NCBI GenBank assembly: GCA_903861045.1
Contig: CAIOST010000353.1
Location: forward strand, 4,097-68,096
Origin: an uncultured bacterium
GTDB taxonomy: Bacteria > Verrucomicrobiota > Kiritimatiellia > RFP12 > CAIWXQ01
Length of the DNA: 64,000 nt
Reading direction: 5' to 3'
The notes under the pieces were generated by a model that was not told where the DNA came from, ran no database searches, and worked only from the letters and a program-made list of their open reading frames with translations. Below are positions 12,398 to 35,989 of the stretch, one piece after another. Each line of letters opens with the position of its first letter. The first letter of the stretch is position 1. The translations under genes were made by a program, and so were the position numbers.

Positions 12398-13879
12398 TTA
12401 CATCACCGCATCCACTCCGACATCGGCGCCATCGACCGGCACGTAATCGGCGTTCCCCACCCCGTCATCCGCCCGATCACCAAACCGGGTCAGCGAATCA
12501 TTGAAGTTCAAGCGCACTTCCCCCGTAGGTCCATTGCGATGTTTGGCCACATCCACAATCGCCAGGGTTTTATCATCGTACTCCGGATCCCCTTGATTGC
12601 GGCACGGGCGGCGCAACAGCAGCACCACGTCGGCGTCTTGTTCGATGGCGCCGGAATCGCGCAAATCCGAGAGTTTAGGTTTGGCGCTCTTGTCACCGCG
12701 CTGTTCGGGTGCCCGGCTCAACTGACTCAGGACGACCACCGGAACTTTCAATTCCTTGGCCATGGCCTTGAGATTGGCGGACACCGCGGAGGTCTCGAGC
12801 TGCCGGCCCTGGCGCGCCACCTCGCGGCAGTTCGCCAGCTGCAGATAGTCCACGATGATCAGTTCAATCTGATGTTTCTTCTTCAGGCGCCGAGCGCGGG
12901 CGCGCATCTCCATGACATCGAGGCCACCGGTATCGTCGACATAAATCGGTGCCTTGCAGAGCTCGGACGCGGCGCGCGTCAACTGCTGCGTAATTTTTTG
13001 TGAATTGCCGATGCCACTATCGATTTGGAAGGCGGGCACCCCAGCCATGCCGCATAGCATACGCAACGCCAGCGCATCGGAAGACATTTCCAAGCTGAAA
13101 ATCGCCACCGGATGCGGCCGGGCGTAATCGCCCTTGAAGCGCTGTCCGACCATATCCCGCCCAATGGCCACGCATTCGGCAAAATTCATAGCCAGCGAGG
13201 TTTTACCCATGGAGGGACGGGCCGCCAACACGATGAGCTCGCCGGCGCGTAGGCCACGCAACTTTTTATCCAGATTCCGCAGTCCCGTGGGTACCCCCGC
13301 CACGCCACCGGGCCCCAGCTGGAATAGTCGCTCCACATGCTGCATCGTGCTGTTGATGACCAGCGGCCATGATGTCAGCTGTCCATGCTGACGCTCTGTG
13401 ATATCCAGAAAGGCCTGTTCGGTCTGGCCGAGGATGAGGTCCGCCGACTGGTTACTCTCGAAACAGGTGCGCTCGGTCTCCCGGGCGCAGGCAATGACCG
13501 CGCGCAGCAGATATTTTTGACGGACAATATCAATGTAGTATTCAGCATGGGCGGCGGTCGGGGTCGCATCTATCAGCGACTCCAGAAACGCTGTCCCGCC
13601 GATGGAATCCAACCTTGCCGCGCTGCGCAGGCGCTCGACCGTGGTCAGCAGATCAATCGCCACGCCTGCGCGTTGCATGGCGATCAACTCATCGAACAAA
13701 CGCCGATGGGGCTCAAAATAGAAGGAATCCGCGACCAACCCTTCGGCCACACACAGGTCCATGACCCGGCCGGAATCAAGCAGGATGGATCCCAGCACGC
13801 CTTTCTCGGCCTCGGCGCTGTGCGGTGGAATGCGCCCGGAGGGCGCCCCCACGCCATCGGCCGTGGCTGGCTGCGGCAT
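12398..13879 (-). CDS. dnaB: replicative DNA helicase
   Basis: PPHSAEAEKGVLGSILLD N-terminal motif, Walker A AARPSMGKTS, and a RecA-like C-domain with SQLSRAPE. Follows rplI, as in many bacteria. Confidence 0.9.
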   Translation of the reverse strand: MPQPATADGVGAPSGRIPPHSAEAEKGVLGSILLDSGRVMDLCVAEGLVADSFYFEPHRRLFDELIAMQRAGVAIDLLTTVERLRSAARLDSIGGTAFLESLIDATPTAAHAEYYIDIVRQKYLLRAVIACARETERTCFESNQSADLILGQTEQAFLDITERQHGQLTSWPLVINSTMQHVERLFQLGPGGVAGVPTGLRNLDKKLRGLRAGELIVLAARPSMGKTSLAMNFAECVAIGRDMVGQRFKGDYARPHPVAIFSLEMSSDALALRMLCGMAGVPAFQIDSGIGNSQKITQQLTRAASELCKAPIYVDDTGGLDVMEMRARARRLKKKHQIELIIVDYLQLANCREVARQGRQLETSAVSANLKAMAKELKVPVVVLSQLSRAPEQRGDKSAKPKLSDLRDSGAIEQDADVVLLLRRPCRNQGDPEYDDKTLAIVDVAKHRNGPTGEVRLNFNDSLTRFGDRADDGVGNADYVPVDGADVGVDAVM

Positions 13880-13884
13880 AGGAG

Positions 13885-14334
13885 CTATTCCTTAACGATC
13901 ATTACCTTGATCGAAATGGCCACGTCCGGATGCAACCGCACCGGCACATCAAACGCGCCGATTTGCTTCAGGTGCTCGGCCAGTTCGACCTGCGAGCGGT
14001 CCAGAGCCACGCCCTGTGCCGTCAACGCCGCCACGATCTCCACGGTCGACACCGAGCCATACAACCGTTCGCCATCCACGGTCTTGGCGCGAATGGTAAC
14101 CGTCATGCCATCCATCTTGGCAGCCTTGGCCTGCGCCTCCGCCAACTGGATTTTGGCAAGCGCCGTGCGCTCTTTGCGCAGTTTATCCAACCGGCGCAGG
14201 GACGCCGGCGTTACCGCCGCCGCCATTTCCTGCGGCAGCAAATAATTGCGCGCATAGCCATCCGCCACTTTCACGACTTCGCCGGCCTTGCCCAACTCGG
14301 GCACGTCAGCCATCAAAAGCACTTCCTTCGCCAT
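13885..14334 (-). CDS. rplI: 50S ribosomal protein L9
   Basis: KVADGYARNYLLPQ motif. Start set at MAKEVLL (nt 14334), which gives about 149 aa. rpsF-ssb-rpsR-rplI order. Confidence 0.9.
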   Translation of the reverse strand: MAKEVLLMADVPELGKAGEVVKVADGYARNYLLPQEMAAAVTPASLRRLDKLRKERTALAKIQLAEAQAKAAKMDGMTVTIRAKTVDGERLYGSVSTVEIVAALTAQGVALDRSQVELAEHLKQIGAFDVPVRLHPDVAISIKVMIVKE

Positions 14335-14405
14335 GATATCCGTCCTTTTCTCGCAGGCACGGGGCCGGTCCTCCGCGGAGGGAGCGTCCACCGACCCGCA
14401 GCCTG

Positions 14406-14657
14406 CTACGCCAGCAATCCCATATTGCGCGCACGGCGCACGCCCCGCTTGACATCCCGCTGCTGCGCGGACGTTACGCCCGTCAGTCGCGACGGAATGA
14501 TCTTGCCGTATTCAGTTACAAACCGACGCAGAAAATCCACATCGTTACGATCGACCACTGCATTCGGATCGAGGTAGCGCGTACGCCGGCGCGGTCCTGC
14601 GTTATCCGATTTTTCCTTGTCACGATCCCTGTCCCGCTCTCGCCTCATCATTGCCAT
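14406..14657 (-). CDS. rpsR: 30S ribosomal protein S18
   Basis: Core FLRRFVTEYGKIIPSRLTGVTSAQQRDVKRGVRRARNMGLL, with an Arg/Asp-rich N-terminal extension. Confidence 0.9.
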   Translation of the reverse strand: MAMMRRERDRDRDKEKSDNAGPRRRTRYLDPNAVVDRNDVDFLRRFVTEYGKIIPSRLTGVTSAQQRDVKRGVRRARNMGLLA

Positions 14658-14696: not shown

Positions 14697-15179
14697 TTAA
14701 AACGGCAGATCATCCGTATCAGCCGGTTCGGCCGGCGCGGGCTCCAACCCCGCCGCCAGGGCCGGTGGTGGCGGCAAGCCGCCCGCCGTCACCGCCGCCC
14801 GTGGCGCTGCCGCCGACGGCGCGCCCTCCTGAGCCTCGCCACGCTTGGGCGTACCCAGAAACTTCACCGTGTCGGCGCGCACCCGCAGCTTGTTGCGCGC
14901 CTCGCCTTGCGGTGTTTTCCATTCATCATACGTCAGGCGACCTTCCACCAATACGGGACGTCCCTTGGCCAGGTACTGCTGACAGAGCTCTGCCAGCTTG
15001 TTCCATACGACCACGTCCACGTAACAGGTGATCTCCTTGGGCTGATTGGTCTGCCGATCCCGATAGGTCTCGGAGATGGCCAGACGCAACTCCGCCACCT
15101 GCGCGCCCGACGGCGTTTGACGCATTTCGGGATCGCGGGTGAGGTTGCCCATCAGCACCACGCGGTTAAAGGATGCCAT
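14697..15179 (-). CDS. ssb: single-stranded DNA-binding protein (housekeeping copy)
   Basis: OB-fold N-terminus NRVVLMGNLTRDPE, a Gly/Pro/Ala linker and the canonical acidic tip DTDDLPF. Lies between rpsF and rpsR. Confidence 0.9.
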   Translation of the reverse strand: MASFNRVVLMGNLTRDPEMRQTPSGAQVAELRLAISETYRDRQTNQPKEITCYVDVVVWNKLAELCQQYLAKGRPVLVEGRLTYDEWKTPQGEARNKLRVRADTVKFLGTPKRGEAQEGAPSAAAPRAAVTAGGLPPPPALAAGLEPAPAEPADTDDLPF

Positions 15180-15244: not shown

Positions 15245-15628
15245 TCACGCCTCGGCGGACACCACCTCGGCACGCGCCGCCACCGCTGCTTCGCGGAGCT
15301 TCCGCTTGGCGGCCTGCTCGGCAATGACCGCTTCCCGGCGCTCATCGACCATCAGGATCTGCACACGGAAGAGGTCCTCCATCAAATGGTAACGCTCGCG
15401 CAACGTAGCCAGGTTCGCGGCATCCAGTTCAAAGCGGATCCGCACATAGGTGCCATGATCCCGCTTCTGCATGGTGCGCGCGAAAGACCGCTTCCCCAAC
15501 ACTTCCGTGTTGAGAATCGCACCGGACAAGCGCGTGATCTCATTACGCATCTTCTCCACAGTCTTATCAAGCATTTCATCCTTTGCCGCGCCGACAAAGA
15601 TATACAAACCGTCATACTTTCTCGCCAT
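15245..15628 (-). CDS. rpsF: 30S ribosomal protein S6
   Basis: MARKYDGLYIFV...LGKRSFARTMQKRDHGTYVRIRFE is typical of bS6. First gene of the rpsF-ssb-rpsR-rplI block. Confidence 0.9.
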   Translation of the reverse strand: MARKYDGLYIFVGAAKDEMLDKTVEKMRNEITRLSGAILNTEVLGKRSFARTMQKRDHGTYVRIRFELDAANLATLRERYHLMEDLFRVQILMVDERREAVIAEQAAKRKLREAAVAARAEVVSAEA

Positions 15629-24463: not shown

Positions 24464-24629
24464 ATTACCTGCCCTTTCGTCGTAAAACGGACGTGCCGAC
24501 TGCATCTATTCAGCGCCACAGAGTAAAAGGCACAGATGATGACATAGCGGCTGGGCGGCGGCAACGGCTTTTCCCGCTTCAGGGAAAGCTCATGGGGGCG
24601 GGCCGGTGTTAAAGTCCGGCCCGCCATGG

Positions 24630-25208
24630 TTACGCGGCGTGATCGCTTGCCTCGTTTTTGAGCTCCTTGGGCGACACCACCTGCCCGGCGCCTGTGCCGA
24701 AAACCATGGGGAAGATGGCATGCTGGAAGACGCAACGCAGCCCCATGGACTCGCCCTCGGTAAGGAGCAGGCGTGTGCGCTGCACGTCGCCTTCTGCGCG
24801 TTTGGATTTCCGCGATATTTCCAGTGCCAGACCTGTTACAGGCTCCTTCTGGTGGCGTAATTGAATCACCGTATTGGCATCCGCCGTATCGTGAAATAGG
24901 CCGCCGCGCCCATTCCCCACCTGCTCGCTTTTCCCATCCAGGACCAGCAGCAGGCTACAGACATCGCCGAGACCGAGTTTGACCGTGATTTTCTTCTCCC
25001 AGTCAAACGTCGCCGCATGTCGGCCACTCCCGTCGCGGGCGGCCACCGTCTTTTGTCGGGCCATTTCCAGGAAGAAGCACCCCTCGCGTTCTGGCCGCGC
25101 CGGGTGAAACTCCAAGCGGGCAGCGGCCCCGCCGCCGCTCTGGGTGGGGTGATAAAATGCCAGTCGTCCGCTCCAAGGGCGTACCGCTGCATCAGCGATC
25201 TGATTCAT
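24630..25208 (-). CDS. Whirly-like (PC4/Whirly-fold) putative ssDNA-binding protein
   Basis: 192 aa with AGGA 8 nt upstream of the ATG. By-eye alignment to plant Whirly proteins finds four matching blocks. GGGAAARLEFHPARPE matches KGKAALTVEPRAPE. ATFDWEKKITVKLGLGDVCSLLLVL matches RQYDWSRKQVFSLSVTEIGSLISL. LFHD matches FFHDP. TRLLLTEGESMGLRCVFQHAIFPMVFG matches IYIPVTKAEFAVLVSAFNFVMPYLLGW. The CDS itself is solid; the fold assignment is unverified. Confidence 0.6.
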   Translation of the reverse strand: MNQIADAAVRPWSGRLAFYHPTQSGGGAAARLEFHPARPEREGCFFLEMARQKTVAARDGSGRHAATFDWEKKITVKLGLGDVCSLLLVLDGKSEQVGNGRGGLFHDTADANTVIQLRHQKEPVTGLALEISRKSKRAEGDVQRTRLLLTEGESMGLRCVFQHAIFPMVFGTGAGQVVSPKELKNEASDHAA

Positions 25209-25265
25209 GATTAGTTCCTTTCATAAAAAAATGATCATGCCGAGCACGCACAGCCATCGTGCGTC

Positions 25266-25706
25266 TCATGTAAAGGGATCATCCATTTCGGCCGCGGCCG
25301 TGCCGCCGGGGCCACCGTTCGCAGCGGCCGCACCATCACCCTCGCCCCGGCCGGCAGGGGTCCCATTCGTGCGCTGCTTAAGAAAATGCACACGTTGGGC
25401 CCGCACGCGCAGACGGCTGCGCTTCTCCCCTTGGGGTGTCTCCCACTGTTCCGTAATCAAGCACCCTTCCACCAGTGCCGGATCCCCCTTTTTTAAGTAC
25501 GTGCTGCTGGCTTCAGCCGACTTCCCCCATACCACGCACTCGGCGAAGCAGGTCTGCTCCACGACCTTGCCATCTTTGGCGGTATACTCATCATTGATGG
25601 CCAATCCCATATCCAACACCGGCGTACCGCCGTTGGTTTTACGCAGGACCGGGTCGCGAGTGAGATGACCTGCCAGGCAGACATGGTTAATACTCAGCGA
25701 ACTCAT
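25266..25706 (-). CDS. ssb: second single-stranded DNA-binding protein paralog with a non-canonical C-terminal tip
   Basis: OB-fold INHVCLAGHLTRDPVLR...VVWGKSAE...KGDPALVEGCLITEQWE and a Gly/Ala-rich linker. It ends ...EMDDPFT instead of the canonical D-D-(I/L)-P-F terminus. GGAGGAG SD. Confidence 0.85.
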   Translation of the reverse strand: MSSLSINHVCLAGHLTRDPVLRKTNGGTPVLDMGLAINDEYTAKDGKVVEQTCFAECVVWGKSAEASSTYLKKGDPALVEGCLITEQWETPQGEKRSRLRVRAQRVHFLKQRTNGTPAGRGEGDGAAAANGGPGGTAAAEMDDPFT

Positions 25707-25853
25707 GGTTGCTCCTCCCCTGTGTTATTTGGTTTCAGCCGCGCCACCACGCGCGTCTGCTACTCTGGTATATGCAATCAAACGTCTAAATCTTACACGT
25801 ACCGGAGAAATATTTTTTTGCCGGGCACGCGGCTAACCGGTTACACTGGGCTG

Positions 25854-26120
25854 ATGACTCCTGATCGTGCCTTATCCCGACTTTTTCTGGTGCTCGCGCT
25901 CATCCTTGGCGGGCTGGCGGCCTTGGTTAGCTGGCTGTTGCAGAGCTGGCTGCCACTGATGGCCGTAGGCGTGGTGCTACTCTGCGTGATGGCCCTGACG
26001 CTTTCGGAGGCCGCCTTATTTGCGCCGCTGCTGGCGCTCGTCATGCGCGCGGGGGACAAAAGCGCCCCCCCCAACCAACATCGGACCGGCGAAAAAATGC
26101 CCCCCCCTACGCGCCGCTGA
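25854..26120 (+). CDS. small hypothetical membrane protein (2-3 predicted TM helices)
   Basis: The ATG at 25854 gives an 88-aa protein, LFLVLALILGGLAALVSWLLQSWLPLMAVGVVLLCVMALTLSEAALFAPLLALV. No recognisable family and a weak RBS. Confidence 0.35.
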   Translation: MTPDRALSRLFLVLALILGGLAALVSWLLQSWLPLMAVGVVLLCVMALTLSEAALFAPLLALVMRAGDKSAPPNQHRTGEKMPPPTRR

Positions 26121-26121
26121 C

Positions 26122-26157
26122 AAAAAAAGAACGGGAGCGGCTTACGCCGCCCCCGTT
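26122..26157 (-). terminator. rho-independent terminator downstream of the pilin gene
   Basis: The minus strand reads AACGGGGGCGGC-GTAA-GCCGCTCCCGTT (12-bp stem with one G-U pair), immediately followed by CTTTTTTTG. It starts 27 nt after the pilin stop. Confidence 0.65.
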
Positions 26158-26184: not shown

Positions 26185-26532
26185 TCAACCACCGACCGCC
26201 AACACATGGTCCGCCGGGCCGCTACACGACGGGTTGTTGGAAATCGCGCCAACCGTATACGTGCCGCCATCGCGGCAAATCGGATCTGCCCCGCCCTTAA
26301 TGTAGGGGGTCAATTCGCTCATCTTCGCTTCGTACGCGTCCGTCATGGTCTGCGTAGCCGTGGCCAACTGCTGCTTGGCATGGTCAATCAGTCGCAGGTT
26401 ATTAATGCAGGAGCTCTTACGGGCATCCTGCCGGGACCGCATGAACGACGGAATGGCGATCGCCGCCAGCAAGGCGATAATCGCGACCACGATCATGATT
26501 TCCACCAAGGTGAAACCTTTGCGCTGAGTCAT
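26185..26532 (-). CDS. prepilin-type N-terminal cleavage/methylation domain protein (type IV pilin / T2SS pseudopilin-like)
   Basis: MTQRKG|FTLVEIMIVVAIIALLAAIAIP is the class III signal peptide. 115 aa. GGAG SD 9 nt upstream of the ATG at 26532. Confidence 0.85.
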   Translation of the reverse strand: MTQRKGFTLVEIMIVVAIIALLAAIAIPSFMRSRQDARKSSCINNLRLIDHAKQQLATATQTMTDAYEAKMSELTPYIKGGADPICRDGGTYTVGAISNNPSCSGPADHVLAVGG

Positions 26533-26624
26533 TGTCTTTCTCCAGTAAGGCCTGCTGCGGGGATCCTCCCGGAGCCGCGCAGGCGTTGTTGTTGTGCATG
26601 GCACCTGTTCTTTCCGCCTTCCCA

Positions 26625-26640
26625 GGCTACGCAGGTGCCA
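26625..26640 (-). promoter_or_regulatory. candidate sigma-54 (-24/-12) promoter, proximal copy, upstream of the pilin gene
   Basis: The minus strand reads TGGCACCTGCGTAGCC. GG and GC are in the canonical register of TGGCACG-N4-TTGCW, but the -12 box is weaker (TAGC). Confidence 0.35.
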
Positions 26641-26690
26641 CGGTTTCCCTGCCTTCGTTGGCCGACCAACGTAGGCATGAACATTTTAAA

Positions 26691-26706
26691 AGCATTATCT
26701 GTGCCA
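26691..26706 (-). promoter_or_regulatory. candidate sigma-54 (-24/-12) promoter, distal copy, upstream of the pilin gene
   Basis: The minus strand reads TGGCACAGATAATGCT, close to the TGGCACG-N4-TTGCW consensus with correct spacing. It is about 160 nt upstream of the pilin ATG. A sigma-54 enhancer-binding response regulator is the neighbouring gene. Confidence 0.5.
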
Positions 26707-26864
26707 ATTAGGCGGGCCAGCCAGGCATTACAAAGATTACCTAACTAGCATGGCATTTCACCCGTAATTTCCTTGCGCGCCTGCGAGCCGCCAGACTGCC
26801 GGCGCCTTTTTCGCAAAATTGCGATGGTTTCTTCTCAACTTCGCAAACCGCAGACATCGTCCGC

Positions 26865-28256
26865 CTATTTCTCTTCCGTCGGCATCTTTCGGTAGAGAGT
26901 CGCCAGCGATATTTGCAACGTTTTAGCCGCCTTCTCCTTGTCACCATGCGCGCGCGCGATCACCTGCTCGAGGTATTCCTTCTCTTTCTGGCGCAAAAAG
27001 GCCCTCAGGGATACATTACGATATTGCTCGATCGCGTCAGGTGCGGCCCCGGTCGCATCCGTCGCCTCGCTGGTTTCTGGCAAGGCGTAGGCCGCGACCC
27101 GCGTCGGCAGGGTTTCCAGCGTAATTTCGTCGCTCTGCACAAACGCCATGGCATGTTTAATGGCATTCTCGAGTTCCCGGACGTTACCCGGCCAGGGGCA
27201 GCGCATCATCGCATCGGCCGCCTCTCGCGAGATGCGAGGGCAGGCCGTGCCGGCCGGCGTCTCCTTACGAAGGAAAAACTGCACCAACGGCAACACATCT
27301 TCCGTGCGGTCACGCAGGGGGGCAATATCAATGGCGATCACGGCGAGTCGGTAATAAAGGTCCTGCCGAAAAGAGCCTTCTTTAACCTTCTCCTCCAAGT
27401 TGACATTACTCGCGGCGAGCACACGCACATTCACGGCAATCGTAGCGGTGCCACCGACCGGGCGCATTTCGCGCTCTTGCAAAACGCGCAATAGCTTCCC
27501 CTGCAACGAGATAGGCATTGACGATATCTCATCTAAAAACAGAGTCCCGCCATCGGCGGCCTCGAACAACCCCTTGCGATCGGTGTTAGCACCGGTAAAG
27601 GAGCCCTTGACATAGCCAAACATCTCGGATTCCAGCAGCGCTTCAGGCAAGGCCGCGCAATTAACAGCGATCCATGGTTTGTCCCGGCGCCGGCTGTTGT
27701 TGTGAATCGCGCGGGCTAGCACCTCCTTGCCGGTCCCGCTTTCGCCAGTCAATAAGACCGTCGCGTCTGTCGGAGCGACACGCCGGACCTGTTCACAGAC
27801 GCGTTTCATAGGCTGGCTTTCAGCCACCACCACATCAAACTTGCACTGCGTCACCAGTGTTTCGCGCAATTCGTCACGCTCGGCCTTGATCTCGCTATAT
27901 TCCAGTGCCCGGCGCACCGTCAAGATCAGCTCATCCACTTTGAACGGCTTCGTGAGATAATCGAACGCCCCCTTCTTCATGGCCTCGATGGCGGTTTCCA
28001 CGGAGCCATAGGCGGTCAAGAGAATCACGGGGAGATCCGGACTTTCGGCGCGTGCCACGCGGAACAACTCCATGCCATCCATGGGCGACATACGGATGTC
28101 GGTAATCAGCAGATCAAATTTCTGCTGCCGCAGCAACGCCACGGCCGTGGGGCCATCCTTCGCGGAGACAGACTCCACCCCCTCCACGCGCAGCACGCTG
28201 TGCAGCAACGACAGAATCCGCGGCTCGTCGTCAACCAGAAGAATCTTTTTTGGCAT
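26865..28256 (-). CDS. sigma-54-dependent Fis-family response regulator (NtrC/PilR-like)
   Basis: REC domain (KILLVDDEPRI...LLITDIRMSPMDG...KPF). AAA+ sigma-54 interaction domain (VLLTGESGTGKE, GSFTGA loop, GGTLFLDEI). C-terminal HTH. Start set at MPKKILLVDD (28256). Confidence 0.9.
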   Translation of the reverse strand: MPKKILLVDDEPRILSLLHSVLRVEGVESVSAKDGPTAVALLRQQKFDLLITDIRMSPMDGMELFRVARAESPDLPVILLTAYGSVETAIEAMKKGAFDYLTKPFKVDELILTVRRALEYSEIKAERDELRETLVTQCKFDVVVAESQPMKRVCEQVRRVAPTDATVLLTGESGTGKEVLARAIHNNSRRRDKPWIAVNCAALPEALLESEMFGYVKGSFTGANTDRKGLFEAADGGTLFLDEISSMPISLQGKLLRVLQEREMRPVGGTATIAVNVRVLAASNVNLEEKVKEGSFRQDLYYRLAVIAIDIAPLRDRTEDVLPLVQFFLRKETPAGTACPRISREAADAMMRCPWPGNVRELENAIKHAMAFVQSDEITLETLPTRVAAYALPETSEATDATGAAPDAIEQYRNVSLRAFLRQKEKEYLEQVIARAHGDKEKAAKTLQISLATLYRKMPTEEK

Positions 28257-28360
28257 AGGCCCTGCTAGCAGTTCGTAGTTTCCGGCATGCGAACCAGCGA
28301 CTACACACGCCTGATTCGCAATTATGATAAACCAGAACTGTCTTCGCGGCAATGAGAAAC

Positions 28361-29557
28361 CTAGCCGTTGGATACCAACTGGCCCATCTTAAAGAGCGGC
28401 ATGAAGAGCGCCACGACGATACCACCGATCACCACGCCAAGGAAGACCATCAGCAAGGGCTCCATCAGCGACGTGAGGGCCGCCAGCATGGTCTCCACCT
28501 CATCGTCGTAGGTATCCGCGATGTTATCCAGCATCTCATCCAGTCGACCGCTCTTTTCGCCTGCTTCCACCATGCGGATCATCAGCTTGGGGAGGCACTC
28601 CTTATCCTGCAACCCGCTGGTAATGGTCCCCCCCTGCTCCACGGAATGGCGCGCATCCATGATGGCCTTTTCGATCACGCGATTGCCCGTGGCTTTTGCC
28701 ACCAGTTCCAGCGCCTCCAGGATCGGCACACCGCTGCGCAACATCTGCGACAGTAGTCTTGTAAAGCGGGCCACGGCCACTTTCTGCGTCAGCACCCCGA
28801 ACACCGGCACTTTGAGTAGTTTGGCGTGAATCGTCCACTGCCCCTGGGGTGTCTTGGCCCAGCGTCGGAAGAGAAAAATTCCCACCATGGCGCTGGGGAT
28901 GATGTATAGGATATTGCCGCGAATGCCATTACTGATACTCAGCAGCACTTGTGTCGGCAGCGGCAGTTTCCCGCCAAAATCCGCATACATGCTGGCAAAA
29001 ACCGGCACGACAAAGGTGATAATACCAAAGGCAATGCTCAGCGCCATGGTCATAACCACGACGGGATACGTCATGGCCCCCTTGACCTTGCGCTTCAGTT
29101 TGGCGCTGGTCTCCATCATCATGGCCAGACGCTTCAGGGTCGGGGCGAACTCGCCGCTGCGTTCCCCGGCGCGCACCATGTTGACATACAGGCTGTCAAA
29201 AATCTGCGGATAACGCGCCAGGGCATCGGAGAACGTTGCGCCCCCCTCGATGGAGGCCAGCAGTTCGCCCAGCACCACGCGGAAAGCCGGCGTCTCAGCC
29301 TGATCATGCAAGGCCGACAACGAAGCCACCAAGGACATGCCGGAAGTCATCATGCTGGAGATCTGGCGTGTGAACGGCCCCAGTTCCTTGTTGACGATCT
29401 TCTTGGCGCCGTGCACCACGCCGCCGCGTCCCCCGCCTTTGCCACTGCCGGCCGCCGCCGGCCGCGCCGGAGTCGTGCTGGACGGACGAGATGACGCTGA
29501 CGAAGCGGAACTCTTGCTAATAACTGGCATGGGAAACTCCTTCTTCTTATTCGCCAC
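28361..29557 (-). CDS. type II secretion system F-family platform protein (PilC/GspF-like)
   Basis: About 400 aa with duplicated T2SSF repeats (…GATFSDALARYPQIFDSLYVNMVRAGERSGEF... and ...GGTITSGLQDKECLPKLMIRMVEAGEKSGRLDEML) and three TM segments. Confidence 0.9.
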   Translation of the reverse strand: MANKKKEFPMPVISKSSASSASSRPSSTTPARPAAAGSGKGGGRGGVVHGAKKIVNKELGPFTRQISSMMTSGMSLVASLSALHDQAETPAFRVVLGELLASIEGGATFSDALARYPQIFDSLYVNMVRAGERSGEFAPTLKRLAMMMETSAKLKRKVKGAMTYPVVVMTMALSIAFGIITFVVPVFASMYADFGGKLPLPTQVLLSISNGIRGNILYIIPSAMVGIFLFRRWAKTPQGQWTIHAKLLKVPVFGVLTQKVAVARFTRLLSQMLRSGVPILEALELVAKATGNRVIEKAIMDARHSVEQGGTITSGLQDKECLPKLMIRMVEAGEKSGRLDEMLDNIADTYDDEVETMLAALTSLMEPLLMVFLGVVIGGIVVALFMPLFKMGQLVSNG

Positions 29558-31268
29558 CCGTGACTTCCAAGGCCGCCGCCAGCGAGGTCAAGCCGGCGCG
29601 CACTTTCATCAATCCAACATTTTTAAGAGGAATCATGCCATTACGCACGGCCAGCGTGCGCAGTTCGCCGGTGGTTCGGCCATGTACGATGGCCTCACGG
29701 ATCACATCGTCCACCGTCAGCACTTCCATGATGGCGCCGCGCCCCTTATACCCGGTGCCATTGCAGCGCGGGCACCCTGTGGGAAAGTAGACCGGCGCCC
29801 CATCAAAGAACTGCGGCTCAATATGGTTGATCTCAAAGACATCCGCAGCCACGGTCCCCTCCTTCTTACAAGCGCTACACAGCTTGCGATAGAGACGCTG
29901 TGCCTGGGCAAGAATGAGGGAAGACCCGATCATAAACGGCGGCACCCCCATATCCACCAGACGGGCAATCACGCCCGCCGCGTCATTGGTGTGCAGCGTG
30001 CTGAGCACCAAATGGCCGGTGAGGGCCGCCTTGATCGCAATATCGGCCGTCTCCCCGTCGCGAATCTCGCCCACCAGAATGATATCCGGATCCTGGCGCA
30101 GCACGGAACGCAAGACGGAGGCAAACGACAGTCCCACCTGTGTGTTCACATGCACCTGATTGATGCCGGCAATCTGATATTCGACCGGATCCTCCGCCGT
30201 GACAATGTTCACATCCGGCTTGTTCAGGTCCTGCATGCAGGAGTAGAGCGTGGTGGTTTTGCCGCTACCGGTCGGCCCGGTTACCAGCAGCACACCATGC
30301 GGTTGCTCAATGGCGTACTGCATGGCTTTGTATGCGAAATCATCCAGCCCCAACGAGCCCAAACCGGGTGCCAGATTTTGTTTATCCAGGATACGCATGA
30401 CGATCTTCTCACCAAAGACCGTGGGTAGAATGCTGACACGGATATCCACTTCCCGGCCAAAGGCCTTGATCTTGAAGCGCCCATCCTGCGGGAGACGCCG
30501 CTCGGCGATATCCAGATCCGACATAATCTTGATGCGGGAGACGAGTGCGTTGTGATACGCCTTGGGCGGACTGGGGCGCTCCACCAAGGACCCGTCAATC
30601 CGGTAGCGCAGCCGCGAACACTTCTCCAGAGCCTCAATGTGGATATCGCTGGCCTTCGTGCGCAGCGCCTCGATCATAACCATGTTCACCATGCGGATGA
30701 CCGGCGCGCCCTCGGCGGTTTCCAGCGTCTTCTCGAGGCTCTCCTCGTGCCCATCCTTGGCGCTGTCGACCTCGATTTCCCCGTCCCCGGCCTTCATCAC
30801 ATCTTCCAGATCCAGGTTCTGGCCGCTGGAAGCCGCATTCGCAGCGGTCGCCCGCCCCAGCAGATCGTTGATCTCCTTCTCGGCTGCCACCAGGGGAATC
30901 ACCAGCAGGCTGGTGGTCATGCGCAGGTTTTCGATGATATGGATATCAAACGGATCTGCCAGCGCGACCAGCAGATTCTTACCGTTCTTCCCCACCGGGA
31001 AAGCGCGCGTGCGCTCCCAGATCTCGCGGGGTTGCAGCTCCAATAGGGCGGGGTCCGGTATGAAATGCGCCAATTTGATCGGCGGCATCCGCACATACTC
31101 TGCCACCGCCAGCGTCATGTCGTCCTGCGAGACCAACTGGCTGTGCAACAGCCGCTTCTCAATCGGACCTGAATCCTGCGAAGTGACCGTCTCGAGCTTC
31201 TCCCGCGTGATCACACCACGCTGGAGCAGGATATCCACCACGCCGCTACCGCTTGACTCGTTTGCCAT
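29547..31268 (-). CDS. GspE/PilB-family type II/IV secretion ATPase
   Basis: N-terminal T2SSE_N-like domain. Walker A VTGPTGSGKTT, Asp box, Walker B ILVGEIRD, His box LTGHLVLSTLHTN, and a tetracysteine motif (CSACK...CPRC). Start set at MANESS (31268, GGAGG SD). Confidence 0.9.
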   Translation of the reverse strand: MANESSGSGVVDILLQRGVITREKLETVTSQDSGPIEKRLLHSQLVSQDDMTLAVAEYVRMPPIKLAHFIPDPALLELQPREIWERTRAFPVGKNGKNLLVALADPFDIHIIENLRMTTSLLVIPLVAAEKEINDLLGRATAANAASSGQNLDLEDVMKAGDGEIEVDSAKDGHEESLEKTLETAEGAPVIRMVNMVMIEALRTKASDIHIEALEKCSRLRYRIDGSLVERPSPPKAYHNALVSRIKIMSDLDIAERRLPQDGRFKIKAFGREVDIRVSILPTVFGEKIVMRILDKQNLAPGLGSLGLDDFAYKAMQYAIEQPHGVLLVTGPTGSGKTTTLYSCMQDLNKPDVNIVTAEDPVEYQIAGINQVHVNTQVGLSFASVLRSVLRQDPDIILVGEIRDGETADIAIKAALTGHLVLSTLHTNDAAGVIARLVDMGVPPFMIGSSLILAQAQRLYRKLCSACKKEGTVAADVFEINHIEPQFFDGAPVYFPTGCPRCNGTGYKGRGAIMEVLTVDDVIREAIVHGRTTGELRTLAVRNGMIPLKNVGLMKVRAGLTSLAAALEVTGGE

Positions 31269-31291
31269 GCCGAAACCTCCTACGTGATAAT

Positions 31292-31307
31292 GGCAGGAAT
31301 TGTGCCA
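31292..31307 (-). promoter_or_regulatory. candidate sigma-54 (-24/-12) promoter upstream of the GspE/PilB-like gene
   Basis: The minus strand reads TGGCACAATTCCTGCC with canonical GG/GC spacing. It ends about 24 nt upstream of the ATG at 31268, which would give a very short leader containing the SD. Confidence 0.4.
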
Positions 31308-31425
31308 GGTGTCACGCCGCCGCCGCACGACCGCGCCTGCCCGCTCTTGCAAAGATTGCAAAAAAGACAAAAGCAGGCTTGAATCTGCGCCGCCCAAAGA
31401 ACAGAATAGCTAATTACAAACACCA

Positions 31426-32331
31426 ATGCCAGACTCTACCAACAACGCCGCCGTCAGCGGGCTCGTCCCGGACAACGAGGCCATCTCTTTCTTCGAGCAG
31501 ATCCTACAAAGCATGCCGGACGACCGGGTCTCGCTCGAAGTACTCTCGCAGGCCTACGAAGGCACGGGGGAAGCGGAGAAAGTCCGCGACCTGCTGGTGC
31601 GCCTGGCCCGCGTGATCGAACGCGATGGCGATTTGGAAGCCGCCCGGCAACTGCAACCCCGACTCACCCTGCACATCGGACACGCGGAGACGGACACCGC
31701 GCTGGACCAACTGCGGCGCTTCCTCGCCGGAACCGGCGGCGACCAAGCAGCCACCACCCGCGCAACCGCACCCAGCGCCGCGCCCTCGCCCAGCAACCTC
31801 TCCCAGGCCATGCAGCGCATCCAAGGAGCCACGGAACGCCGCTCTATGGTCTCGCAGGAACTGGACTTCGCCTGGCTGCTGCATGAACAAGGGATCCTCT
31901 CGGAAGATCAGTACGCCTCCGTCGTCAGCGACATTACGGACCTCTCTGCCAGCGACACCCCCCTCCCCATCTCCGTGCTCCACCTCTTCCAGGATCGCCA
32001 ACTCCCCAATATAGACCGCGTGCTGACTCTTGCCGCCGAGAAAAGCGGCGCCCCCCTGTTGCCGCTCTCCTCCTTCGAACCGCAAGCCGCCGCTTACAGC
32101 CTGCTCCCGTTGGATTATCTGATCATCAAAGGCGTCATCCCCTTTGAATTGATCGCACGCGATCTGCTGGTCGCCACCCTCAACCCGCTCAACGAGGCCC
32201 TGCATGAAGAGCTCGAGAAATTAACCGGACGCCGCTGCCACTTCTATCTGGTCCAGCCGTCCGAGTTTGACATCTCGATTGACAGGATCCGCAAACAGAC
32301 GCAGGCGGAAGCCGCGTCCGGCAACAAGTAG
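31426..32331 (+). CDS. hypothetical protein with a C-terminal GspE-N/MshEN-like domain (no ATPase domain)
   Basis: 301 aa. The C-terminal ~140 aa (LDFAWLLHEQGILSEDQYASVVSD...LPLDYLIIKGVIPFELIARDLLVATLNPLNEALHEELEKLTGRRCHFYLV) follows the T2SSE_N pattern seen at the N-terminus of the adjacent PilB-like ATPase. Divergently transcribed from it. Confidence 0.55.
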   Translation: MPDSTNNAAVSGLVPDNEAISFFEQILQSMPDDRVSLEVLSQAYEGTGEAEKVRDLLVRLARVIERDGDLEAARQLQPRLTLHIGHAETDTALDQLRRFLAGTGGDQAATTRATAPSAAPSPSNLSQAMQRIQGATERRSMVSQELDFAWLLHEQGILSEDQYASVVSDITDLSASDTPLPISVLHLFQDRQLPNIDRVLTLAAEKSGAPLLPLSSFEPQAAAYSLLPLDYLIIKGVIPFELIARDLLVATLNPLNEALHEELEKLTGRRCHFYLVQPSEFDISIDRIRKQTQAEAASGNK

Positions 32332-32363
32332 CCGGAGCGTTGCGGCTCCCGGAGCGTTGCGGT

Positions 32364-33152
32364 TCAATGATTGGCGCCCACATAAAAGTCGCGCCGTTCC
32401 CCCGTACTCGAAGCCAGCGTGACACACTGGGGGGCAATCGCCACCACGGTCATGGTTTCGATCTTATCGCCTTGTGAGACCAAACGCCCGTTGATGCGTG
32501 CCAACGATTTGGTCTGCGCGCCGCCAATCACCGCCGTGATCTTAATGGTCGGCCAAACAAACGGCTTCTCTGCGCCGGGCGCCGGACTGGAAACAGCCCG
32601 CACCGGTGGTTGCTTTGGTATTTCTGCCGCTACCGCCGGCACCACGGCCACGGGGGCCACGACCGCCACAGGCGCGCCCGCGGGGGCCGTAGTCATCTCG
32701 GCCCCTGCCCCTTCGACCCCGTTGCGAATTTGCGCCTTCAACGCCTTAGCATCCTGCAGCGGTTTGGCCAGCGAAGTTGCCGACACCTGATGCGGTGCCG
32801 AGGCAGGCAGCGTGGCTGTCGGTGCCGCCGTGGGCGTGGCTGGCATGGGCTCTTTCGCCGTCGCCGTTTTCGTCTGCAAGCGGGTCGCCCAGTGTTGCGC
32901 CCACGTCTGGACCGTGGCGATGCCGTCCCCCCACTGTCCGTGGCCAACTGCCATCAACCCGCCCCCCACCAAGAGCGCCACCGCCAGCACCACCAGCACC
33001 ACTTTCTTACCCACGCTACTTTCTTGAACCCGTCCGTCCAGCGCCACGACGGGTGCGACGGCATCCAGCGGCGGCGGCGTCGCCCCCAACCCCATGGGAC
33101 CTGCCGGCGCTATCCCGCCGGGCAATGGTTTGTTGCTTGATCCGATCTGCAT
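32364..33152 (-). CDS. Pro/Ala-rich membrane-anchored protein with a GspB/MshK-like C-terminal domain
   Basis: One TM (VVLVVLAVALLVGGGLMAV) and a long Ala/Pro/Thr linker. The C-terminus WPTIKITAVIGGAQTKSLARINGRLVSQGDKIETMTVVAIAPQCVTLAS resembles the T2SS GspB-type domain. Confidence 0.5.
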   Translation of the reverse strand: MQIGSSNKPLPGGIAPAGPMGLGATPPPLDAVAPVVALDGRVQESSVGKKVVLVVLAVALLVGGGLMAVGHGQWGDGIATVQTWAQHWATRLQTKTATAKEPMPATPTAAPTATLPASAPHQVSATSLAKPLQDAKALKAQIRNGVEGAGAEMTTAPAGAPVAVVAPVAVVPAVAAEIPKQPPVRAVSSPAPGAEKPFVWPTIKITAVIGGAQTKSLARINGRLVSQGDKIETMTVVAIAPQCVTLASSTGERRDFYVGANH

Positions 33153-33156
33153 TTGA

Positions 33157-35862
33157 TTACTCTCCGCTCACATGATTGTGCGATTTCGCCGCCCTCGCGG
33201 CGGACTTGGCCACCACCTGGTCCAACACCTCCAGCAACTGCACACGCGTAAAAGGCTTGCTTAACAGGCCGGACGGGTGCAGAGGCGCAAAATGCGTCTG
33301 GGCCGCGTGGATGCCATACCCCGTCATAATCACAATCGGCACGTCTGCATGGATCGCCCGAATGGCCCGGAAGGACTCCTCGCCCGTCATTTCCGGCATC
33401 TCCTGGTCCAGCAGCACCACCTGCACATCCTGCGCGCGCTGCGCAAAGAGGCTGGCAGCCACCCGGCCATTCTCCGCCGCCAGCACCTCATAACCGGAAG
33501 AGCTCAACGCCAACGTAGTGACCTTGCGGATGTCCATGTCATCTTCGGCCAGCAGCACCAGTCGCTTACTTTTGCCAACGACCGGCGGCACCAAGGTCGG
33601 CAACGTGGTCGGCAGGACAGCCACCGGCACCGCATCGGCCTGCACCTGCGCCGTTCCCTGCGGCAGAACCACGCGGAAGACCGTGCCAACCTGCTCGGTG
33701 CTGCGCACCGCAATGCCGCCGCCATGCGCCTGCACGATCCCCATCACCGCCGAAAGCCCTAACCCGCGCCCGGCGGCTTTCGTCGAGAAGAACGGGTCAA
33801 AGATCCGGGCCTGCACATCCGGTGGCATCCCCCGCCCGGTATCACGCACCTCCAGCAGCGCATACACGCCAGCCGGCAACGGGTTGGCGCCGAGAAATTC
33901 CCCCAGCTCATCGGCTGCCGCTTCCAGCCGGTTGGTCGTCAGCGTGATCACGCCCGGTTTGTTGCCCAGCGCATCCGAAGCATTGATCAGCAGATTCATC
34001 GCCACCTGCCCCAATTGTGACGAATCACCCATGATGGCCGGCACCCGTGGATCCATGTTTATCTCTAGCGTCGCCTTCTTCGATAACGAGGTCTGCAGCA
34101 GCAGGGTCATATCGCGCAGCATGCTGTTGAGATTCACGGTCTGCGGTTCCACGCTACCCTGGCCGGCATAGGCCTGCAACTGCCGGGTCAACCCCGAGGC
34201 TCGGATCGCCGCCTTGCGGATCTGCGTCACCGGTTCCACCACCGGCTCGCCGCCCATGGTCTTGATCGCCGCATCCTCCGCGTGCCCCAGAATGGCCGAC
34301 AGAATGTTGTTGAAATCATGCGCAATGCCACTAGCCAGCAGCCCCAGGCTTTCCAGCTTCTGCTTCTGCCCGATGCGCACCTCCAACAGGTGCCGATCCC
34401 GTTCCGCCTTGTGTCGGTCCGTCATGTTACGTTCAATGGCCAGCGCACAATGCTCATTGACCGGTACAATCCGGAACTCTCCCCAATACGCCAGACCATC
34501 CGAATACTCCGCATGAAACTCCAGCGACTGCCACTGCCCCGTGGCAAACACCGCGTCAATGCGTTCCTGCAACTGCATCCGTAAATCGGCCGGCAGCACG
34601 CGCACATCATGCAAGTCACACCCGATCGCCTTCTCCGGCGTCATGGCCAGAAACTGTTCTGCTCCGATGGGACACTTGACAGATAGCAACCGCCCGCGCT
34701 TCTCAAAGAAGTACATGATATCCGGCGAAGCGGCCAGCAGCGCCCGGCTCTGGCTCTCGCTATGCTCCAGCCGCAGCCGACTATGCTCCATGGCGGTCAA
34801 CAGGGTATTGACGGCACGTGCCACCACGCCAAACTCGTTCTGCCCCGCCTCATGCAAGCGCCGCCCCGCCGATTCGCGAAAGGGCAGCGCCTGAATCTCG
34901 GCGGCCAGCCGCGTCAGCGGATTGATCACCGCCCGCCCCTGCATATAAAGCAGGGGCACGATAAAACAGATCCCGACCGCCGCCACAAACAGCAAAAGCC
35001 AGTCCAGCGACACCTTTGCCAGCGGTGCAAACGTGCGCGGCATTGTAATGACCAGGGATACCGAGGGGTTTCCATAGACATCGAACACCGGCAACCGGGC
35101 TTCATACCCATCCAGGCCGGCAACCCGCCAGGCGCTGGGCGCGGCCACCCCATCGCGCCACGCCACATCCACCGCCGCCCCCTTCCGGGGTGACGACGGC
35201 TGCTCATCCGACACAACCGGGGCTAGCTGCAATTCCTCAAACAACGGCACCCCGATCCGCAAGCCGGGCAACGCAGCCCCCAGGCGACGCACCACCGATT
35301 TACCGTGCAAATCCCGCCCTAGCACCAGCACGCCCGCCATCGGCTGGGCAAGATCGTCCGGAATACGCTGCACCGCCACCAGCATCGGTCCTTCGTCCAG
35401 CACCACCAGCCCGACCCGCACCGACTGGTTGGTGAACGTCAGCAGGGGCGATTGCGGGAGCAGATGCCGTTGCAAGGATGCCGAGAGCGTCGAGGGGGGC
35501 GCCTGCCGCGACGGCAGATAGATCGAGGAAAAAAGCTGCCCGGCCGGGTCAACCAGGGCGGCCATCTGTAAATCGTGCTTGGCCAAGGCGGCCGCCGGAA
35601 ACGCCCGGCCGGCTGCCTCCGGTTGCCGCTCGCTACATGCGGCCCCAATCCCGGGGTCACTGCGGCAGGCAGCGGCCGTCTGCCCCAATTGGCGCATCTC
35701 CGCTTGGATGGTTCGCGCCAGATCCGGCGCGCTACGTACAACCGACATCTCCGTCCTGCGAAAAGACTCCAGTAGGATCAGCCGGCCACCCACATAAAAG
35801 ATCAGTAACAGCAGCAGTAACGCCATGCTGGTTGCCAATGCCAGCTTCATCCGCACGCTCAT
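33157..35862 (-). CDS. hybrid sensor histidine kinase / response regulator (periplasmic sensor, PAS, HisKA, HATPase_c, REC)
   Basis: TM-flanked N-terminal sensor domain. H-box LASGIAHDFNNILSAILGH. N/G boxes (NLLINASDAL, DTGRGM, GRGLGLS). C-terminal REC (LLAEDDMDIR...VLLDQEMPEMTG). Start set at MSVRMKL (35862, good SD) rather than 35943. Confidence 0.85.
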   Translation of the reverse strand: MSVRMKLALATSMALLLLLLIFYVGGRLILLESFRRTEMSVVRSAPDLARTIQAEMRQLGQTAAACRSDPGIGAACSERQPEAAGRAFPAAALAKHDLQMAALVDPAGQLFSSIYLPSRQAPPSTLSASLQRHLLPQSPLLTFTNQSVRVGLVVLDEGPMLVAVQRIPDDLAQPMAGVLVLGRDLHGKSVVRRLGAALPGLRIGVPLFEELQLAPVVSDEQPSSPRKGAAVDVAWRDGVAAPSAWRVAGLDGYEARLPVFDVYGNPSVSLVITMPRTFAPLAKVSLDWLLLFVAAVGICFIVPLLYMQGRAVINPLTRLAAEIQALPFRESAGRRLHEAGQNEFGVVARAVNTLLTAMEHSRLRLEHSESQSRALLAASPDIMYFFEKRGRLLSVKCPIGAEQFLAMTPEKAIGCDLHDVRVLPADLRMQLQERIDAVFATGQWQSLEFHAEYSDGLAYWGEFRIVPVNEHCALAIERNMTDRHKAERDRHLLEVRIGQKQKLESLGLLASGIAHDFNNILSAILGHAEDAAIKTMGGEPVVEPVTQIRKAAIRASGLTRQLQAYAGQGSVEPQTVNLNSMLRDMTLLLQTSLSKKATLEINMDPRVPAIMGDSSQLGQVAMNLLINASDALGNKPGVITLTTNRLEAAADELGEFLGANPLPAGVYALLEVRDTGRGMPPDVQARIFDPFFSTKAAGRGLGLSAVMGIVQAHGGGIAVRSTEQVGTVFRVVLPQGTAQVQADAVPVAVLPTTLPTLVPPVVGKSKRLVLLAEDDMDIRKVTTLALSSSGYEVLAAENGRVAASLFAQRAQDVQVVLLDQEMPEMTGEESFRAIRAIHADVPIVIMTGYGIHAAQTHFAPLHPSGLLSKPFTRVQLLEVLDQVVAKSAARAAKSHNHVSGE

Positions 35863-35989
35863 TCTGTCTGTTCCTCTCTTGCCGTCCGAAAGCAGCACTG
35901 GCACAACCAGTCGGGTTGCATCCGGGACACGTACAGAACCCATTGAAGCAACTGTTGACGCTCGGGCGATCAGCCCCTACTCTCTTGGC

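Follow-up and report, generated by a model that had tools for sequence, protein, structure and literature searches.

A second single-stranded DNA-binding protein gene and its predicted Whirly-fold partner gene: a candidate recombination or repair module of Kiritimatiellia

The DNA analysed here is a stretch of 64,000 nucleotides (hereafter the window) from an uncultured bacterium of the class Kiritimatiellia (GenBank assembly GCA_903861045.1, contig CAIOST010000353.1), and this report concerns two co-directional genes of its minus strand: ssb2 (25266-25706), a second gene for a protein (SSB) that binds single-stranded DNA (ssDNA), and an open reading frame (24630-25208) for a 192-amino-acid Whirly-like protein, hereafter why. 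The 146-residue SSB2 comprises an OB domain (about residues 5-110), a linker rich in Gly, Ala and Pro, and an acidic tip, MDDPF, prolonged by one Thr; the Whirly-like protein is predicted to consist of two beta4-alpha repeats and a C-terminal tail modelled with low confidence. Upstream of ssb2 we read a Shine-Dalgarno sequence, GGAGGAG (25712-25718, minus strand), whose GGAGG is conserved across the aligned relatives, and the 57-nt spacer that separates the two genes (25209-25265, minus strand) contains the AAGGAA Shine-Dalgarno sequence of why (25215-25220). A G+C hairpin with a 10-bp stem (24597-24625, minus strand) begins 5 nt past the stop codon of why, and the 81-nt region around it folds with -35.9 kcal/mol (z = -3.1 versus shuffles). 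No U-tract follows this hairpin, hence it was not called in the terminator scan (four terminator-like sites found versus 2.2 expected), and it is probably the 3' end or a stabiliser of a bicistronic transcript. All these elements of the gene pair, namely the two reading frames and their coordinates, both Shine-Dalgarno sequences, the spacing and the terminal hairpin, agree with a first-pass annotation of the same DNA. The spacer also contains a weak hairpin, with a stem of 5 bp and a T-run (25236-25248, minus strand), which could attenuate read-through and so set the ratio of the two proteins, or may equally be a chance occurrence. The G+C content of the unit (0.57-0.62) is similar to that of its flanks, with no anomaly and no sign of a foreign island.

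The AlphaFold2 model of the 192-residue protein, built from a 55-sequence alignment (pLDDT 90.7, pTM 0.82), places strands within residues 15-78, a helix at 80-90, further strands within 104-149 and a long, conserved C-terminal helix at 151-170. These are two tandem beta4-alpha repeats, with two antiparallel sheets packed on helices, as in the Whirly fold. Since the first strand begins at residue 15, there is no N-terminal extension. When the model was compared with the Protein Data Bank (PDB) by Foldseek, the top 15 matches were all plant Whirly chains (AtWHY1/2/3, PBF-2 and StWhy2), with E values of 9e-7 to 3e-5, a probability of 1.00, target-normalised template-modelling scores of 0.59-0.75 and 15-18% identity, and the 16th, human PURA, was three orders of magnitude weaker (E 9e-3). 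The structural comparison thereby sustains the likeness to plant Whirly proteins that the first-pass annotation had noticed by eye. From the predicted model and the family-level matches described below, we consider it very probable that the fold of this protein is that of Whirly and that it is distantly homologous to the Whirly/MRP group.

At the sequence level, the window protein aligned with positions 26-80 of the 136-position Pfam Whirly profile (PF08536) with 14.1 bits and an E value of 0.043, and the NCBIfam scan assigned it to no family. The profile check that had been advised therefore gave a mixed answer, sub-threshold for the single protein and consistently weak but positive for its family. 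First, we found 126 homologues, two of which carry a precomputed PF08536 match, and each of 28 of the 55 that were aligned has its own match to Pfam Whirly at E<=0.1 (best 9.7e-7). Coatomer, at chance level, is the only other family that recurs among these 55, and two of the proteins match Pfam MRP, which also has the Whirly fold. Second, six of 43 short relatives match Pfam Whirly at E<=0.01 (best 1.6e-8), and one of the 43 matches Pfam MRP. Third, a broad profile of 89 sequences (A4) found only five PDB matches at E<=1, namely MRP1 (0.003), the wild type and the K67A mutant of StWhy2 (0.015 each), MRP2 (0.21) and PBF-2 p24 (0.79). The Pfam Whirly matches of about half of the aligned homologues, together with the confinement of all five PDB matches to the Whirly/MRP group, indicate a similarity well beyond chance. 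Used singly against the PDB, homologue P0078 matched StWhy2 and nothing else (E 0.009), and homologue P0218 had no match. A narrower profile of the close family (A1) had RNA polymerase omega as its top PDB match (E 0.03); we rejected this match as spurious, being due to a low-complexity acidic stretch, and it disappeared with A4. The MRP family itself (PF09387) does not accommodate the window protein, which has no MRP match, and only three members of the bacterial family reach E values of 0.006-0.024 with it. Finally, ten longer family members examined for fusions carried no informative extra domain.

The blocks of similarity proposed by eye in the first-pass annotation fared unequally. The pairs FDWEKK/YDWEKR and GYFLGLS/GYFISLS and the C-terminal helix are reproduced in the HMMER alignments of family members to StWhy2, whereas HMMER places LFHD about five residues away from the proposed FFHDP, so that this block is uncertain, and the pairing of GGGAAA with KGKAAL finds only indirect support, in Foldseek alignments spanning 165-201 columns.

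The Whirly-like family is large and predominantly found in one part of the bacterial tree. An exhaustive profile search, which covered 1.84 billion representatives, returned at least 1,025 clusters (at 50% identity) with E<=1e-3, of which 611 have E<=1e-10 and 86 have E<=1e-30; they include a shorter subfamily (about 150-170 residues), in which some sequences have the terminal GW of plant Whirly proteins. All named homologues from the protein searches are labelled Kiritimatiellia or "bacterium". We also recovered 37 reference loci from GTDB species representatives, the closest of which has 81% protein identity to the window, and 36 of them are labelled Kiritimatiellae, Lentisphaerae, Victivallales, Verrucomicrobiota, PVC (Planctomycetes-Verrucomicrobia-Chlamydiae) group, Phycisphaerales or 'bacterium', the exception being L017, labelled Candidatus Neomarinimicrobiota. 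The earlier surmise that the organism belongs to the PVC group is borne out by these labels, which indicate a Kiritimatiellia-like bacterium. The family is thus bacterial, and the window protein is devoid of an N-terminal extension, in contrast to the organelle-targeted Whirly proteins of the green lineage. The plant-like affinity that had been noticed is real, but it is remote (15-18% identity) and about equal to that with the kinetoplastid MRP1/2 proteins, and a recent transfer between plants and bacteria, in either direction, is unsupported at such an identity and with such equal distances. Two sequences of the family are peculiar. P0048, from a 2.3-kb metagenome contig, is a mosaic, with 95 N-terminal residues about 80% identical to the window type and 71 C-terminal residues that share no more than 37% identity with any family member and end in LLGW like plant Whirly proteins; it arose either by natural recombination between subfamilies or as a chimera of the assembly. 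P0364 and P0391 are different short-subfamily proteins with locus tags of a single metagenome-assembled genome (IKO55_09880 and IKO55_09340); therefore, some genomes carry more than one paralogue.

Turning to the first gene of the pair, the ssb2 product matches the Pfam SSB family PF00436 with 95.2 bits (cut-off 26) and TIGR00621 with 109.2 bits (cut-off 53.95), and, as judged from its sequence, it is an OB-fold SSB and a true second paralogue encoded outside the housekeeping operon. This operon comprises rpsF (15245-15628), the housekeeping gene ssb1 (14697-15179, minus strand), rpsR (14406-14657), rplI (13885-14391) and dnaB (12398-13879); ssb1 lies outside the ssb2-why module and serves here as the comparator. 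Its 160-residue product ends in DDLPF, as the first-pass annotation had reported, and is 48% identical to SSB2 across the OB domain. The C-terminus of SSB2, MDDPFT, departs from the canonical SSB tip, in which a hydrophobic residue and Pro precede a last Phe with a free carboxylate. The tip that had been pointed out as masking this carboxylate is real: 29 of the 54 ssb2 orthologues end in (D/E/P)(D/N)PF plus one residue (mostly Ala, but also Gly, Asn, Lys or Arg, and Thr in the window), so the tip is a feature conserved in the window's clade rather than an error. With growing distance, the orthologues end in GFPPF, DPF-TAF, DPF-GGL or DPF-PAL, and the most distant ones have a canonical IPF or MPF; similarly, the paired SSBs of other clades have mostly canonical tips. 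Well-studied SSB partners such as ExoI, RecQ and PriA grip both the terminal Phe and its carboxylate. Likewise, in the SSB partner DnaG a hydrophobic pocket holds the ring of the terminal Phe and basic residues hold its carboxylate (PMC5872125). The additional residue should therefore weaken the contacts of the SSB2 tip with canonical partners.

The association of the two genes extends to many related genomes. In 16 of the 37 reference loci examined by tblastn, where the identity of the Whirly-like proteins goes down to 35%, an SSB gene lies directly upstream of, and co-directional with, the Whirly-like gene. Locus L032, the contig of which retains just the tail of the upstream gene (…EEAEEAEAIPF*, an SSB-type tip), is a possible 17th pair. 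The SSB gene is again followed by the Whirly-like gene in L043, a 166-kb contig separate from the 37, where the flanks comprise an AraC-type regulator, a beta-propeller protein and a poly(A) polymerase-family gene. In addition, 17 of the 54 ssb2 orthologues come from contigs whose length equals that of a contig with a Whirly-like homologue, and hence lie on the same contigs, and none of the paired SSBs of these loci is in an rpsF context. The co-occurrence survey that had been suggested thus shows SSB adjacency to be conserved in many relatives. Neither of the outcomes that the first-pass annotation had named as refuting its reading, a lack of any significant profile or structural Whirly match and a pair not kept together in any relative, was observed. 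Thirteen loci, ten of them with a paired SSB, are flanked by two conserved genes of unknown function that are divergently transcribed; the conserved neighbours that we designate 'cluster 3' and 'cluster 4' have no Pfam match and no homologue in the window.

In a host-associated clade of Kiritimatiellae (L022, L024-L029 and L038-L040), the Whirly-like gene has no adjacent SSB gene and is immediately followed, in ten of ten loci, by yraN, a gene of the UPF0102/YraN nuclease family (e.g. L038, 5001-6026). The distance between why and yraN in the annotated loci, L040 and L038, ranges from a 17-nt overlap to 12 nt. Upstream of the Whirly-like gene stands comM in L022, L025 and L038/L039, or mutS in L024 and L027-L029; downstream of yraN stands recA in L038/L039 (comM-why-yraN-recA) or comEC in L040 (why-yraN-comEC). 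The arrangement comM-yraN(-dprA), a cluster for recombination and transformation, is conserved widely, and in the host-associated clade the Whirly-like gene is inserted into a cluster of this type. The why-yraN pairing may be as informative on function as the pairing with SSB.

The ssb2-why unit is preceded by an element of its own. The start codon of ssb2 is preceded, at a distance of 61 nt, by a two-box sequence, GTGTAAGATT-N13-GCATATACC (25767-25798, minus strand), the two boxes of which are conserved in L001 (186-216), L003 (1854-1884) and L043 (5412-5442), with a 13-nt spacer that varies in sequence and is fixed in length in all four; in the 64-kb window the element is unique when up to three mismatches are allowed, with 0 expected. 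In other clades we found an analogous element, composed of a T-run, TTCCGGAAA, N11-13 and TTTC(T/C)TTA, the strict pattern of which has 15 matches in 421 kb. Ten of these 15 are located 63-118 nt upstream of ssb in paired loci or of the Whirly-like gene where it stands alone, and the other five are upstream of the conserved 'cluster 4' gene of unknown function (examples of the element are L017 at 5368, L018 at 2185, and, with a second copy on the minus strand, L020 at 5341 and 4223, L030 at 2865 and 1381, L031 at 5380 and 2072, and L034 at 5881 and 5025). No copy of the other-clade element separates ssb from the Whirly-like gene in the paired loci, an absence in keeping with co-transcription of the two genes and with a small dedicated regulon; the distribution of the element likewise suggests such a regulon. 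We propose that the two-box sequence is a putative promoter or operator dedicated to the ssb2-why unit. A scan for sigma-70 promoters found none on the correct strand upstream of ssb2, and by-eye reading of the conserved element allowed neither a sigma-54 nor an extracytoplasmic-function (ECF)-like assignment. The intervening 'cluster 3' protein (about 280 residues, no Pfam match) is a candidate regulator.

Taking these lines of evidence together, we propose that ssb2 and why form a bicistronic operon encoding two cooperating ssDNA binders that would operate in recombination or repair, apart from the replisome-linked SSB, a reading to which we assign about an even chance. That the Whirly-like protein binds single-stranded nucleic acid is, by analogy with its structural relatives, likely in our view, and its predicted fold and the ssb, recA, mutS, comM and comEC neighbourhoods point to ssDNA binding that would be independent of sequence. 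The notion of a dedicated ssDNA-handling pair, with specialised repair or recombination as a plausible role, goes back to the first-pass annotation and has gained support from the fold, the pairing and the comM, yraN, recA, mutS and comEC neighbourhoods of sister clades. In the mechanism that we envisage, SSB2 would coat ssDNA as a tetramer, and the residue added after its terminal Phe would remove the carboxylate gripped by canonical partners, so that SSB2-coated DNA would be shielded from the usual SSB interactome and would probably be recognised by a partner of its own. If it behaves like plant Whirly and MRP1/2 proteins, the Whirly-like protein would form a tetramer through its long C-terminal helix, and this tetramer would bind single strands, whatever their sequence, on and between its beta-sheets. 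Like the Whirly proteins of organelles, it may protect ssDNA and thereby favour accurate RecA-dependent recombination over microhomology-driven annealing. The conserved upstream element suggests that the unit would be regulated in a dedicated manner.

Several observations weigh against this proposal. Approximately half of the loci have no adjacent SSB gene, some copies stand alone beside RNA-related genes (for RRM and DEAD-box proteins, in L045) or unrelated genes (L044 and L046), and neighbourhoods within one bacterial class may partly reflect shared ancestry rather than selection. The window protein taken alone is under the Pfam Whirly gathering threshold (14.1 versus 23 bits), and phmmer with it against the PDB gave chance matches only (scFv, RCC1), none of them relevant. 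The KGKAAL lysines, to which a part in the ssDNA binding and 24-mer assembly of plant Whirly proteins is ascribed, are absent: the window protein has GGGAAA at the position aligned by eye with this motif, and the family consensus is G-x-G-x-A, without lysines. The KGKAAL motif is also absent from algal and liverwort Whirly-like proteins (PMC9070903). Lastly, the median isoelectric point (pI) of the family is only about 7.

A bolder version of our proposal is that the Whirly-like protein is itself the dedicated partner of SSB2, whose DPF-plus-one tip would have been re-tuned to dock on the Whirly-like tetramer rather than on canonical SSB partners, the two forming an insulated ssDNA channel, with its own regulon, that would feed RecA-dependent recombination or the processing of incoming DNA, and furthermore that this PVC-centred family is the prokaryotic root of plant Whirly and MRP1/2 proteins. 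Taken as a whole, this conjunction is possible but doubtful.

Another function to be considered is DNA uptake, in which SSB2 would act similarly to the SsbB of naturally transformable bacteria and, with the Whirly-like protein, coat the ssDNA that enters with the aid of the neighbouring type IV pilus-like machinery. On the minus strand (26185-35943), the pair adjoins an upstream module in which Pfam recognises a pilin-like gene (N_methyl), a sigma-54 response regulator of the NtrC/PilR type, T2SSF, a T2SSE/MshEN ATPase and a CHASE4 hybrid histidine kinase, next to two genes without clear Pfam matches; it looks like a type IV pilus or type II secretion-like system with two-component control of its own, separate from ssb2-why. 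The first-pass annotation had used this adjacency as an argument for DNA uptake, which does not hold, and we rejected the linkage as a conserved association. First, a strong intrinsic terminator (26130-26157, minus strand; 12-bp stem with nine GC pairs, T7 tail) ends the pilin-like gene (26185-26604) and separates the two units. Second, no homologue of the pilus-module genes, or of any other neighbour in the window, turned up near the pair in relatives, and L043 has no pilus genes beside its pair. Between ssb2 and the terminator there is, moreover, a possible divergent small open reading frame (25854-26120, plus strand), whose 88-residue product (MTPDRALSRLFLVLALILGG…) is very hydrophobic and looks like two or three membrane helices.

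The DNA-uptake role remains conceivable owing to the sister-clade contexts, where the Whirly-like gene is beside comEC (L040) or comM (L022, L025 and L038), and not to the pilus adjacency. It is also in line with the copies on mobile elements, whose surroundings (PcfJ, DUF932) resemble the early regions that deal with incoming ssDNA. However, comM and yraN are common in non-transformable bacteria as well; we saw no dprA, no comEA, no competence regulator and no evidence of a com-box or competence regulon, and to our knowledge neither a competence regulator nor a com-box has been described in this lineage and natural transformation is not documented for this group. We therefore regard a competence function as unlikely.

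We give the same low likelihood to a function on RNA, in which the Whirly-like protein would be a chaperone, matchmaker or mRNA binder similar to MRP1/2 or ChmC, and the SSB adjacency would be incidental or related to the handling of R-loops or primers. The RNA-binding MRP1 is indeed the best PDB sequence match of the broad profile (E 0.003), Pfam MRP is matched by the two of 55 and the one of 43 members mentioned above, the stand-alone copy of L045 has an RRM protein on one side and two DEAD-box helicases on the other, and ChmC, a Whirly-fold tetramer of a prokaryotic virus, prefers RNA (bioRxiv 10.1101/2023.09.22.559000). Nevertheless, the recurrent neighbours are genes of DNA metabolism (ssb, recA, mutS, comM, comEC, yraN), and Foldseek ranks the ssDNA-binding Whirly proteins of plants first.

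The Whirly-like protein could also be an abundant, DNA-compacting architectural component of the nucleoid, without a particular link to recombination, as has been suggested for WHIRLY1 in the plastid nucleoids of monocots. WHIRLY1 is reported to compact nucleoids even in E. coli (PMC9070903; bioRxiv 10.1101/2020.10.19.344945). Many bacterial copies of the gene form monocistronic units among housekeeping genes, and the pI of the window protein is basic (8.9). However, according to the bioRxiv abstract, compaction requires the N-terminal PRAPP motif of monocot WHIRLY1, which was not seen in the window protein; the family median pI is neutral; and a general architectural role fits poorly with the specific pairing with an SSB paralogue and with the dedicated upstream element, so that we find this interpretation very improbable.

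Equally hard to credit is the idea that the pair is a phage or conjugative remnant, or a cargo serving element replication, recombination or anti-defence without a host function: short members do occur in a phage-like region (L041/L042, 5001-5495) with a faint portal match, PcfJ and helix-turn-helix genes, and on two IMG/VR contigs (L047, 4632-5108, and L048, 4794-5270), on one of which a stand-alone MutS-domain-I protein and DUF932 follow (L048, 5946-6269 and 6315-7517), and a viral fold library gave weak Whirly-like matches to uncharacterised phage proteins, but searches of PADLOC, PHROG, phage genomes and plasmids gave no match for the window protein, there is no GC anomaly at the window pair and no integrase or phage gene among the neighbours scanned, and the pair with its upstream element is conserved in chromosomal contexts across deep divergence, so that we rejected a defence or mobile-element origin for it. 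The short members on phage-like or viral contigs may be SSB-like early genes of elements that infect Kiritimatiellae.

Compared with known systems, the pair that we interpret as a recombination or repair operon combines familiar parts in a particular way. Similarly to plant Whirly proteins (StWhy1/PBF-2 p24, StWhy2 and AtWHY1/2/3; PF08536), with which they share sequence homology at the family level, the bacterial proteins have two beta4-alpha repeats, the (F/Y)DW and G-Y-x-h-x-h-S motifs, a C-terminal amphipathic helix and, in some members, the GW end, and they are associated with ssDNA and recombination, an association established in plants and drawn from gene context alone in the bacterial family. 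They differ by their low identity (15-18%), the sub-cut-off score of the window protein, the lack of the KGKAAL lysines and of a transit peptide, and the location of the gene in an operon with an SSB paralogue or within comM/yraN/recA clusters. The kinetoplastid MRP1/2 proteins have the Whirly-type fold as well, MRP1 being the best PDB sequence match of the broad profile and MRP2 being matched too, but they are a heterotetramer that binds RNA in mitochondria, whereas the bacterial family has one gene per locus, with paralogues in a few genomes, and DNA-metabolism genes as neighbours. As for SSB2, it resembles secondary SSBs (SsbB of Bacillus and Streptococcus, SsbC of S. aureus, plasmid and phage SSBs) in being a second OB-fold SSB encoded away from rpsF-ssb-rpsR and in having a modified C-terminal region that implies another set of partners; unlike them, it is neither truncated nor tip-less, since it retains the full linker and the acidic DDPF and adds exactly one residue, and its gene is paired with a Whirly-fold gene.

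Among prokaryotic relatives of the fold, ChmC of Chimalliviridae phages is a homotetramer with a Whirly/PC4-like fold that binds single-stranded nucleic acid, but its repeats are of the beta3-alpha type, its preferred ligand is RNA and its gene belongs to jumbo phages. Shedu and Menshen have sPC4/Whirly sensor domains with a Whirly or PC4-like fold too, but these are half-size dimerising units fused to effector proteins. None of ChmC, Shedu and Menshen has a sequence match to the bacterial Whirly-like family, which also has no PADLOC and no PHROG match. The PC4-like binders (YdbC/DUF2128, Borrelia Pur-alpha and DUF1508) belong to the same broad superfold, and YdbC and Pur-alpha bind single-stranded nucleic acid (PMC7549692); they are, however, 'type II' half-domains forming intermolecular dimers, whereas the Whirly-like protein is a 'type I' tandem, and the Pfam scan of the window protein matched none of these three families.

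Reviews still describe Whirly proteins, guardians of organelle genomes, as specific to plants (PMC9070903). The prokaryotic Whirly/PC4-like folds described so far are ChmC (10.1101/2023.09.22.559000), the Shedu and Menshen sensors (10.1101/2023.08.10.552793; PMC12065111) and half-size PC4-like proteins (PMC7549692). In agreement with the earlier statement that no bacterial Whirly protein had been characterised, the literature that we searched describes no free-standing bacterial Whirly-type family, no pairing of such a protein with an SSB paralogue and no SSB tip of the Phe-plus-one type. The family is not wholly invisible, as a minority of its members carry automatic PF08536 matches in databases.

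With this large bacterial family, the Whirly/MRP superfamily would gain a root outside eukaryotes, and its evolutionary origin becomes testable. The two-gene operon with SSB, or the insertion into comM-yraN-recA, offers a simple setting in which to ask how Whirly proteins share ssDNA with SSB and RecA, in competition or in cooperation, and the conserved "Phe plus one" tip of the paired SSB is a natural experiment on how the tail encodes the choice of partners. Kiritimatiellia are an abundant and poorly studied group of polysaccharide-degrading bacteria. For this group, the module gives an annotation to a widespread "hypothetical protein", and our finding points to an uncharacterised bacterial module of DNA recombination or repair.

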